The notes: generated by a model from the sequence alone, not told the origin. A stretch of 64,000 nucleotides of DNA from Candidatus Spongiisociaceae bacterium (GCA_965262915.1 OZ253564.1:2560001-2624000); one strand, 5' to 3'. Shown: positions 32,664 through 35,562, numbered from the stretch's first letter. A program made the numbers and translations.

Positions 32664-33239
32664 TCACCGGTCAGGCACACCGGCCGCTGGCCACTGACCA
32701 CCGGCCACCGACCCGTAGGTGGCGGCGAGTCGCTGGTAGGCCACCACGCCGTGACGCTGGCGCTCGATCTCGGCCTCGGTCAACTCCCGCACCGGCTTGG
32801 CGGGTATGCCCATCGCCAGGGTCCACGGCGGGATAGTCCTCCCTTCGGGGAGCAGGGCCCCTGAGGCAAGCCAGGCGCCGTTGCCCAGTACCGCTCCGTT
32901 CAGCGCGCGGGCGCCGATCCCGACCAGGCAATGGTTCCCGATCGTGGCGCCGTGGAGCACCACGCTGTGGCCGACCGTGGAGTGGTCGCCGACGGCACAC
33001 GGGAAACCTTCGTCCACGTGCATCACGACGTTGTCCTGGATGTTGGAGTAGGTGCCTACTTCGACTCGATCGAACTCGGCCCGGATCACCACCCCGAACA
33101 TGACCACCGCGTTTGCCCGGATCGCAGCGTCGCCGTATATGTGGACTCCGGGGGCGATAAAGGCCGATGGATGGATGACCGGGCTACCCATCGGTATCGG
33201 TTCGGTCGGGTATTCCGGTGGCATCGAGTTTCCGTGCAT
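32664..33239 (-). CDS. Gamma carbonic anhydrase family (hexapeptide repeat) protein
   Basis: IHPSAFIAP, SNIQDNVVMH, TVGHSVVLHG, GIPAKPVREL; start 33239 or 33224. Confidence 0.9.
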   Translation of the reverse strand: MHGNSMPPEYPTEPIPMGSPVIHPSAFIAPGVHIYGDAAIRANAVVMFGVVIRAEFDRVEVGTYSNIQDNVVMHVDEGFPCAVGDHSTVGHSVVLHGATIGNHCLVGIGARALNGAVLGNGAWLASGALLPEGRTIPPWTLAMGIPAKPVRELTEAEIERQRHGVVAYQRLAATYGSVAGGQWPAAGVPDR

Positions 33240-33288
33240 CGGGAGCACTGTAATGGGGCCTATATACTTGAGTGCCCATGCGGGCTGC

Positions 33289-34572
33289 TCAGGCATACTG
33301 TTCTGCGGCGACCACTTGCGTCCCCGCCCCGAGAGGCGAGTCGGTCTCACGGTGGTTGTTTGTAGTGCGCGCCGCGTCAGGTGGTGGCCCCTCCCGACCC
33401 CGGACCTGTGGGAAGGCCCGGGCGCATATGTTCCTGGCGGCGTTGACGTCCCGGCACAGGCTGAGACGTCAACGCCCGCACCGATAGACTCTGGTTCCGA
33501 GCGGCATCGGCTGGCGATGCCCGCACCGGGAGCAATCGGTGCTGGTATGGGAAGGGCTCACCTTCACATACGGGACACCAGCTTTCTCGGCTTTGTGTCC
33601 CAGTACGAGGTCGAAGGTACCCCACCGCTGTTCCGACATCTTCTTGGAGTATCTGCGGGAGCGGAGCAGTCCCGCGATGTTGAGGTCCTCGACGGCGACG
33701 CCGTCCAAGGAAGTAACGAGGTCGTGGGCCAGGCGGAAGTCCGCCGCCCGGGCTCTCTCGGTTTCCCTGCGCCGGACCCTGGCCACAGCAGCCCGCTTCT
33801 TGGCCCGGGACCGAGATCCCCGTTGTGCCCGTGCCAGACGCCGCTGGTACCGGCGGACAGTCACATTGTCGATAGTCCGCGCCGGTACGTACCGCCCGTC
33901 GGACAGTGCCATCCGCGTTGTGAGGCCCTTGTCTATCCCCACCGGGTTCAGGGGAGCGGACACCACCTCAGGATCCGCTCCATGTTTGAGCACCGCGTGT
34001 ATCTCCACCCGCAACGGGGTGCGCACCACCCGCAGCTCCACCACCGTGCCAGCATCGAGAGCGGCGGCCAGCCGTCCGTTGCGATCGCAGAACCTGGCTG
34101 CGGGGACTCCCTTGACCCGCAGACGCCACCATCGACCCACGGGACCCGGCGGTACGAGCATCGATGCCCTCGCTCCCACTATCTCTATGCTTCTCCACCG
34201 GTGTCGGGGCTTGAAGCGGGGGTATCCGGGCTTGGTCCCTTCCTTGCTGCAGCGCTTGTAGAAGGACTTGACCGTACGGTCGAAACGACAGATGACGCCC
34301 CGGCCCACCCTGGTGTCCACCGCCGCCCAGCGGGGATCCTCGTTCCGGACCAGGGTGAACATCTTGAACAGGTCGTAACGGGACAGGTTCCGATCCGCGG
34401 GGTACTGCCCAGCTCCCGGGTTGTGTTCCCTCCACCACGCGTAGGTGCCCTTCCAAGACTCGAGGAGGGCGTTGTACATTTCGCAGGAGATGGCCAGTAT
34501 CTCATCCAGGCAGCGGTGTTGGGACGGGGAGCACTTCGCCGTGAACCTCAACGTCGTCACCCGAGAGGACAT
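33289..34572 (-). pseudogene. tnpB: RNA-guided endonuclease TnpB with one in-frame TGA (33469-33471)
   Basis: MYNALL, PGYPRFK, RuvC-I GIDKG, RuvC-II VEDL, TSTDCSRCG; past the TGA the frame continues RLSLCRDVNAARN (RuvC-III) to a stop at 33289. Confidence 0.9.
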
Positions 34573-34578
34573 AGTCTC

Positions 34579-34600
34579 ATAATAGTTGGGGGTTGTGACA
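34579..34600 (-). promoter_or_regulatory. Putative tnpB promoter TGTCAC-N10-TATTAT (RecA-NDp/PafBC-like), leaderless
   Basis: -10-like hexamer 6 nt upstream of ATG 34572. Confidence 0.55.
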
Positions 34601-34684
34601 CTTCGAGACAATGTGGGCACTCACGTATATAAGCCCCACTGTAATCAACTGTAGCGGTCCGTACCGCCCGACCACGCTGCGCTG

Positions 34685-34785: not shown

Positions 34786-35562
34786 ATGGTGCGGTTCAAG
34801 GACCGGGTTGCGGTGGTGACCGGAGGAGCGTCGGGGATCGGCGGCGCCACCGCCAGGGAGTTTCTCCGGGCGGGCGCCGGCGTGGTGGTCATCGACCTGC
34901 AGCCCGTGGATCACGACTACCTGACCCGCGATCTCGACTGCTCCCCCGACTCACTCCGGTCGATCCAGGGCAGCGTGGCGGAGATCGACGACTGCCGTCG
35001 TGCGGTTGCCGAAGCCGTGGACAGCTTCGGCCGCATCGATTGCCTGGTCAACAACGCCGCCAGCTTCGTGGTCGAGGCACTGGATGTGACCAAGGAGGAC
35101 TGGGACGCCAGTTGGTCGACCAACGTTCTGGGATCGACCAATATGGTCCAGGCCGCCTTCGAGCCCCTGAAGGATGTGGGGAACGGGGCCATCGTGAACG
35201 TGGCCAGCGTCGTCGCGGTGGTGGCGAAACCGGGTGCTTGGACGTACCACGGTACCAAAGGGGCTGTGCTGGCGATGACGATGTGCATGGCCCTCGACCT
35301 CGGCGTTCACGGGATCAGGGCCAATACGATCAGCCCTGGCTGGACCTGGACCGAAGCGACCGCGGCCATCATCGACCGCAAGGCCTACGAGGAATACATC
35401 GTCCCGCACATGATGCTGAACCGCTGCGGGGAGACCATTGACGTGGCCCGCGCCATCCTCTTCCTGTGCAGCGACGACGCGTCGTTCATAACCGGTACCG
35501 ACCTCAAGGTCGACGGCGGCTACAGCGCCATGGGGCCGGAGGGGAAGTCCCACCCGGTCTGA
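34786..35562 (+). CDS. SDR family oxidoreductase
   Basis: TGGASGIG, NNAA, YHGTK, ISPG, FITG...VDGG. Confidence 0.93.
   Translation: MVRFKDRVAVVTGGASGIGGATAREFLRAGAGVVVIDLQPVDHDYLTRDLDCSPDSLRSIQGSVAEIDDCRRAVAEAVDSFGRIDCLVNNAASFVVEALDVTKEDWDASWSTNVLGSTNMVQAAFEPLKDVGNGAIVNVASVVAVVAKPGAWTYHGTKGAVLAMTMCMALDLGVHGIRANTISPGWTWTEATAAIIDRKAYEEYIVPHMMLNRCGETIDVARAILFLCSDDASFITGTDLKVDGGYSAMGPEGKSHPV

Follow-up and report, generated by a model that had tools for sequence, protein, structure and literature searches.

A tnpB-only transposon unit with IS1595-type terminal inverted repeats in a Candidatus Spongiisociaceae bacterium

Results and Discussion

Structure of the unit and its insertion site

The window analyzed here is a stretch of 64,000 nucleotides from a Candidatus Spongiisociaceae bacterium (GCA_965262915.1, OZ253564.1:2560001-2624000), and window positions are counted from its first letter. 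Positions 33255-34637 formed a 1383-bp unit in which tnpB, on the minus strand, was the sole recognizable gene; a sequence-only reading had claimed as much, and ORF and Pfam/NCBIfam searches confirmed it. Long antisense ORFs in the unit had no Pfam match. No IS1595 transposase gene was found within 33255-34637, so the DDE_Tnp_IS1595 domain by which membership in that family is judged is not encoded by the unit itself.

The unit ended in 24-bp terminal inverted repeats (TIRs). The right end (RE, 3′ of tnpB) occupied 33255-33278 on the plus strand (GGGGCCTATATACTTGAGTGCCCA) and the left end (LE, 5′ of tnpB) 34614-34637 on the minus strand (GGGGCTTATATACGTGAGTGCCCA), with identity at 22 of 24 positions. 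At up to three mismatches, these two were the only TIR matches in the window, and none were obtained in 100 shuffles. Both TIRs were abutted by the 8-bp sequence ACTGTAAT (33247-33254 beside RE and 34638-34645 beside LE; ATTACAGT in the sense of tnpB), so that the earlier description of 22/24-identical repeats flanked exactly by an 8-bp target-site duplication (TSD) was accurate. The RE boundary at 33255 was backed by a second copy in the genome and by two contigs of run X12 that diverged from the window exactly at this position, which marks the end of the element at another site.

The flanking genes were a hexapeptide-repeat gene (gamma-carbonic-anhydrase-like, LbH; 32664-33239, minus strand), identified by a Hexapep match and by orthologues in congeners, and a short-chain dehydrogenase (SDR) gene (34786-35562, plus strand; adh_short_C2, 190 bits). 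The hexapeptide-repeat gene was found in seven genomes of the same genus, and in three of these (G310, G311, and G316) it was adjacent to the dehydrogenase gene, with the element absent. The empty-site junction read ACTGTAAT, in a single copy, in G310, ACTGTACT in G311, and ACTGTACC in G316. An empty allele with one ACTGTAAT between the flanking genes had been predicted, and its presence in G310 demonstrated that the duplication at the window insertion is real. The right junction was bridged by contigs in three public runs, each from a different study, indicating that the insertion was present there too; contigs skipping the element were found in none of four runs, and no empty/occupied polymorphism was seen in them. 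Upstream of the hexapeptide-repeat gene, RE lay 15 nt from the likely start codon (ATG, 33239), and tnpB pointed in the same direction as that gene (window 33224-33254). Transcription leaving the element would enter the hexapeptide-repeat gene, whose ribosome-binding region would be covered by the presumed guide.

The tnpB pseudogene and a conserved predicted RNA at the right end

The tnpB product matched Pfam OrfB_IS605 (41 bits) and Cas12f1-like_TNB (64 bits), and NCBIfam guided_TnpB at 149.5 bits (cut-off 100). The truncated frame (33469-34572, minus strand) ran from an ATG at 34572 to an in-frame TGA at 33469-33471. The remainder of the frame past this codon (33289-33468, minus strand) contained the RuvC-III motif RDVNAARNI, leaving the RuvC-III Asp of the window copy behind the first TGA, and ended at a second in-frame TGA (33289-33291). 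The first TGA occupied the position of the fourth zinc-finger Cys, which was TGC in the second genomic copy and Cys in six aligned relatives; the RuvC D/E/D and C4 zinc-finger residues were kept in those six relatives. Reading this TGA as selenocysteine was rejected, as the second copy has TGC, the relatives have Cys codons, and another TGA follows downstream. The window tnpB is a pseudogene, and its two in-frame TGA codons make this copy dead. The sequence-only reading had proposed an RNA-guided nuclease transposon; the window copy is no active one. The second copy in the same genome (G000, one 5.06-Mb contig) was located at C1:763876-765066 and was 94% identical; it kept the right TIR, while at the opposite end the initial ~185 bp, with the left TIR and the beginning of tnpB, were missing.

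Over its final ~190 nt, the unit was conserved far better as DNA than as protein. RNAalifold predicted 28 consensus pairs from an alignment of 19 elements (A2), and 15 of these pairs showed compensatory changes. The structured segment corresponds to 33255-33430 of the window on the minus strand and runs into the RE TIR. It included an invariant CAGAACAGTAY, 40-55 nt before the end of the unit (CAGAACAGTAT, 33295-33305 in the window), and a variable hairpin overlapping the inner right TIR. This structured RNA abutting the right TIR is presumably the omegaRNA scaffold, and a predicted scaffold that enters the TIR fits the report on Fanzor elements (PMC10711439). No Rfam family was assigned, the best hit being a chance match to ar14 (21 bits versus a threshold of 58.8). 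Contigs of run X19, which is RNA only by guess, covered 33352-33544 and no other part of the element, a pattern from which neither expression nor RNA ends can be deduced. In one relative (L013:4148-4367), there was a ~50-nt tandem duplication within the RuvC-III-coding region that begins the conserved RNA. In seven relatives (L003, L005, L008, L013, L024, L026, and L028), the tnpB frame was open to a TAA inside the right TIR (TATAAG), 8 nt before the end. This extension may be a by-product of high G+C; it is doubted as the real C-terminus because the last ~60 residues were poorly conserved.

A family of tnpB-only relatives

A scan of species-representative genomes identified 31 related tnpB loci, all in Acidimicrobiia MAGs and 46-70% identical to the window TnpB, and a scan of metagenomes with the TnpB alignment yielded five further loci, all tnpB-only. 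TIR-pattern searches added more copies, giving 33 distinct both-ended elements, drawn from metagenome contigs and about 10 MAGs. The 24-bp TIRs were present at both ends in the window unit and in the relatives. The TSDs of the 33 paired elements were perfect over 8 bp in 23 cases, carried one mismatch in three, and carried two or more in seven; the 26 good TSDs (perfect or with one mismatch) each had a different sequence, with an A+T content of 77%. The sequence-only reading had predicted additional copies with separate 8-bp TSDs, and this was borne out; close homologues without these TIRs, which it had named as the case against itself, were not seen. With TIRs and TSDs across the family, transposition by a Y1 enzyme (IS200/IS605) or a serine recombinase (IS607) is ruled out. 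TnpBs of this clade were found in 0 of 300 sampled genomes of the class at E<=1e-30, and a plasmid collection contained no TnpB relatives above 32.5% identity.

Copies within two MAGs were nearly indistinguishable. L022 and L030 in G004 had different TSDs and were 100% identical across 1468 bp; in G001, L012 and L025 were 99.6% identical. The transposition of these copies was recent. G001 also contained MITEs of 275 and 360 bp, derived from the tnpB unit by internal deletion; they had the same ends and were flanked by 8-bp TSDs. As these MITEs have no tnpB, mobility is carried by the ends and not by TnpB. Two other loci on one G001 contig (C10), L016 at ~942 kb and L108 at ~15.4 kb, had a common right flank, AAAGAAAAacagtcccgata, with a perfect TSD at L108 and none at L016, suggesting that the copies have recombined or that a segment was duplicated between them.

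The family pattern bears on whether the tnpB is instead that of an IS200/IS605 tnpB-only element (IS1341 type) nested inside an unrelated MITE, to which alone the TIRs and the TSD would belong. Nesting would suit the nearest annotated TnpBs, which adjoin IS200/IS605 tnpA genes. However, the arrangement was fixed among elements whose proteins differ as widely from the window TnpB as noted above, the TIR preceded tnpB by ~65-105 nt, and at the other end the conserved RNA continued into the right TIR. Whole units also move as one, as identical copies occurred at different sites with different TSDs, and the MITEs that were found were deletion derivatives of the tnpB unit rather than empty shells. 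We therefore regard nesting as very unlikely.

IS1595 elements with similar ends

[quoted passage not shown] Transposase genes were searched in the genomes with the Pfam IS1595 DDE domain (PF12762), and PF12760 and NF033547 (cut-off 75) were also scored. A complete IS1595 element of 2271 bp was found in G000 (C1:248689-250959, L039), with TIRs GGGAATTATATATTTAGCTTGACG and GGGAATTATATATTTAGCGTGACG and TSD AAACATTG. Its 337-aa transposase scored 139 bits with PF12762 and 194 bits with NF033547 and contained the zinc ribbon (PF12760). The TIR of this element agreed at 19 of 23 positions with the consensus of the relatives' tnpB elements (GGGACTTATATACCTAGGTTGAC) and at merely 13 of 24 with the window TIR. 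An IS1595 transposase gene in G308, one of the MAGs with tnpB elements, was preceded by GGGGCTTATATGCGTGAGTGCC, identical to the window LE (34614-34637) at 21 of 22 positions; the DDE domain of this gene was partial (positions 4-90 of 153 of the Pfam profile). G172 contained a complete IS1595 element of 2421 bp (L045) with GGGGATTATATACGTAAGTTGC at both ends, matching the window TIR at 18 of 22 positions, and TSD CAACCTTT.

The suggestion of an IS1595-like partner, made from the ends of the unit, was thus borne out by IS1595 transposase genes with the same TIR type and 8-bp TSDs, the complete G000 element among them. The further expectation of an autonomous transposase with the same ends was satisfied at the level of the family, but the closest ends belonged to the G308 gene with its partial domain, and the copy in the genome itself was much less similar.

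Across the class, 11 of 32 IS1595 loci resolved into elements with GG-initial TIRs, perfect 8-bp TSDs, and sizes of 2.0-3.0 kb, which leaves room beyond the transposase gene of ~1 kb. L039 and L045 had confirmed passenger genes, and another was found beside a one-ended copy in L079. The passenger of L045 (250-1434; G172) was a DNA methylase-HNH fusion, that of L039 (2073-2624; G000:C1 ~249.8-250.3 kb) was a 183-aa ORF with no family match, and a DNA methylase-Mrr fusion accompanied the one-ended copy (L079:9820-11661; G308). IS1595 transposases were detected in 27 of 300 sampled genomes of the class (G280, unpublished, was only counted).

The proposed route of mobilization

Transposase genes were unevenly distributed among the ten tnpB-carrying genomes. 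Only G000 and G308 yielded an intact-looking IS1595 gene, and the IS1595 domain search found no intact gene in G001, G005, G306, or G307. G002, G003, and G004 had truncated IS1595 genes alone, and the match in G309 was below the family cut-off. The truncated remains in G002 and G004 belonged to the same IS1595 clade, with 52-59% identity to the G000 transposase, and the G003 remnant was a short fragment with 38% identity. G001 and G004 showed the most recent movement, as seen in their near-identical copies, yet neither had an intact IS1595 gene. MAGs may lack plasmids or unbinned contigs, and the missing genes are accordingly a gap and not a refutation.

Recently moved copies in several genomes without an intact transposase of IS1595, the family searched, are what would be seen if the ends came from another DDE family that makes 8-bp duplications (ISL3, IS1, IS6, IS256, or similar), with the likeness to IS1595 owing to shared end ancestry or coincidence. 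Against such an origin are the TIR identities of 21/22 and 18/22 to ends that directly flank IS1595 transposase genes, the completeness of two IS1595 elements with such ends and their own 8-bp TSDs, and the truncated remains of the same clade in G002 and G004. We consider another DDE family to be an improbable source of these ends.

No locus combined tnpB and an IS1595 transposase within one TIR pair, and 30 IS1595 loci gave no TnpB match. No IS1595 transposase match was found near the five metagenome tnpB loci within flanks of up to 4 kb on each side. In five MAGs, TIR pairs delimited tnpB-only units or MITEs, or the TIRs were solo ends. Candidates for larger elements between the same TIRs in these MAGs were rejected; L034, L035, and L038 enclosed housekeeping genes and no DDE transposase, and the pairs at L036 and L037 were chance or unrelated ends.

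The unit is likely a non-autonomous IS1595-type transposon, in which a TnpB/omegaRNA module lies between IS1595 TIRs and is mobilized in trans. Mobilization in trans remains an inference, since no element combines the two genes and most of the tnpB-carrying genomes have no more than truncated IS1595 genes. An IS1595-family transposase supplied in trans would bind the ~24-bp TIRs, excise the unit, and insert it at an A+T-rich target cut with an 8-bp stagger, the repair of which would produce the 8-bp duplication. In intact relatives, TnpB and the omegaRNA would probably cut the empty allele and aid the persistence of the element. The guide of the omegaRNA would be taken from the flank, with a scaffold that overlaps the 3′ end of tnpB and enters the right TIR. 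For the window copy, insertion between the LbH and SDR genes would post-date the split from the congeners, and tnpB has since been lost by nonsense mutations.

An orientation-specific base at the target site

The target sites were asymmetric with respect to the orientation of tnpB. In 24 of the 26 insertions with good TSDs, the base 5′ of the left-hand TSD, in the sense of tnpB, was G (G(-1)), and at the mirror position past the right-hand TSD C was found in just 5 of 26 (Fisher p about 1e-7). Positions 1-3 of the TSD were almost exclusively A or T. Both TSD-bearing MITE derivatives also had G(-1). Among autonomous IS1595 elements, few of which belong to the same TIR clade, this bias was absent (G in 2 of 10). 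A symmetric DDE transpososome should give a palindromic preference, so that the bias counts against the proposed route in its simple form, and for this reason G(-1) was suspected to be part of the TAM of TnpB; an asymmetric transpososome is an alternative source.

The asymmetry, its absence from autonomous IS1595 elements, and the near-identical copies in genomes without an intact IS1595 gene could also be accounted for if TnpB itself helped to choose or prepare the insertion site or mobilized the unit, such that a DDE partner would not be needed in each genome. This is at odds with the MITE derivatives, which still carry TSDs in the absence of tnpB, and with ends that are those of IS1595 elements; the transposase may, moreover, reside on plasmids or unbinned contigs missing from the MAGs. 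We regard such a role of TnpB, whether in site choice or as the mobilizing activity, as very unlikely.

Every element ends in C, so that the occupied junction reads C followed by the TSD, while the empty allele reads G followed by the TSD. On these base counts we put forward, tentatively and with rather more doubt than belief, that G(-1) followed by an A/T-rich stretch is the TAM, such that TnpB would cut empty alleles only and drive the homing or retention of an IS1595-type transposon. If this were true, a single base, C versus G before the TSD, would tell self from non-self, and the family would provide the first bacterial case in which the target sites observed for a DDE element are shaped by the TAM of an RNA-guided nuclease and not by the transposase, as well as the first IS1595-TnpB partnership. 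G(-1) is a clear, testable signal of a possible connection between the recognition of a TAM and target sites.

Comparison with known TnpB systems

TnpB is the ancestor of Cas12 and is usually found on IS605 and IS607 elements with scarless excision, which underlies the current model of homing to restore a lost copy. To our knowledge, the function of TnpB on cut-and-paste DDE transposons that leave duplications has been little studied in prokaryotes. The present family is a compact, multi-copy natural system, with units of ~1.4 kb, MITEs, identifiable IS1595 partners, and known empty sites.

The unit resembled the IS1595 family in its GG-initial TIRs, 8-bp TSDs, A+T-rich targets, and a TIR sequence in common with IS1595 elements of the same class, and differed from it in having no transposase gene, in its cargo of tnpB and a structured RNA, and in the orientation-specific G(-1). 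It was similar to the IS1341 group of IS200/IS605 in that tnpB was the sole gene and the TnpB domain make-up was the same; unlike that group, whose asymmetric ends have subterminal hairpins, it had 24-bp TIRs and variable 8-bp TSDs, with no fixed tetra- or pentanucleotide target and conservation limited to G(-1) and to A/T at TSD positions 1-3. A 2026 review (PMC13565253) describes IS200/IS605 as having no TIRs and no TSD and inserting 3′ of a fixed 4-5-nt site, and IS607 serine-recombinase transposition as having neither TIRs nor TSDs. The nearest annotated TnpBs, at about 30-32% identity, were from Thermus and Deinococcus plasmids, and their link to IS200/IS605 points to an IS605-type element as the probable source from which the module was captured.

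Altae-Tran et al. (2023; PMC10691335) tied six TnpB branches (DDE-1 to DDE-6), all with inverted terminal repeats, to DDE transposases, and solo TnpBs with ends matching those of transposase-bearing elements were thought to be mobilized in trans. The unit is like these branches in having inverted terminal repeats and not IS605/IS607 ends, and in the position of the TnpB 3′ end within 250 bp of the transposon end. The sole DDE family named in the main text of that paper is IS630 (DDE-6), and the term IS1595 is absent from its main text; the tnpB clade described here may overlap with DDE-1 to DDE-5. The review cited above names ISL2, IS630, and IS1031 as partner families and calls such pairings rare. 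IS1595-type ends set the unit apart from all of these named partners. The claim in the sequence-only reading of a TnpB-DDE pairing distinct from IS630 is consequently upheld with regard to the ends, but DDE-linked TnpBs with inverted ends and trans-mobilized solo forms have been known as a class since 2023 (PMC10691335), and the IS1595-type ends are what is new here. No description of an IS1595-TnpB pairing was found in the literature returned by a full-text search for TnpB and IS1595, most matches of which were seen by their listing alone; in PMC12507524, both simply appear next to each other in a list.

The Fanzor1 transposons with TIRs and TSDs described in PMC10711439 provide a further parallel, as they too are nuclease-only, non-autonomous units with a guide-RNA scaffold through the TIR, a feature that is predicted for the present unit. 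Unlike the eukaryotic or viral Fanzor1 carriers, the unit is prokaryotic and has a canonical TnpB. By this association IS1595, a prokaryotic relative of Merlin, would join the DDE families that carry TnpB, which bears on the origin of Fanzor-type associations.

Remnants and other TIR-like ends

Three solo TIR ends of the window subtype (GGGGGCTTATATAC..GAGTGC..) were present in G000 at C1:1444945, 1686097, and 4452077, one of which keeps 60 nt of left-end sequence, and a 45-aa tnpB fragment was found at C1:1689495-1689629. The three solo ends are remnants of further copies. No partner TIRs were found for six solo TIR-like ends in G000, including, within 12 kb, the three of the window subtype. 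A 38-bp palindrome at C1:276694-276731 (GGGGATTACA...TGTAATCCCC) resembled two TIR tips placed head to head. TIR-like tips without a partner end at C1:277836 (GGGGAATTATATACC) and C1:772941 (GGGGGCCTATATACTTACC) had a common subterminal motif, ACCTATCTACCAGGC, which suggests another element family with related ends. A further TIR-like tip, GGGACTTATAGGCGTAGTAGGTGGAC, was identical in L036:1020-1742 (G001) and L037 (G003); in G001 it adjoins an IS110-family (DEDD) transposase gene, and it is probably unrelated to the tnpB elements.
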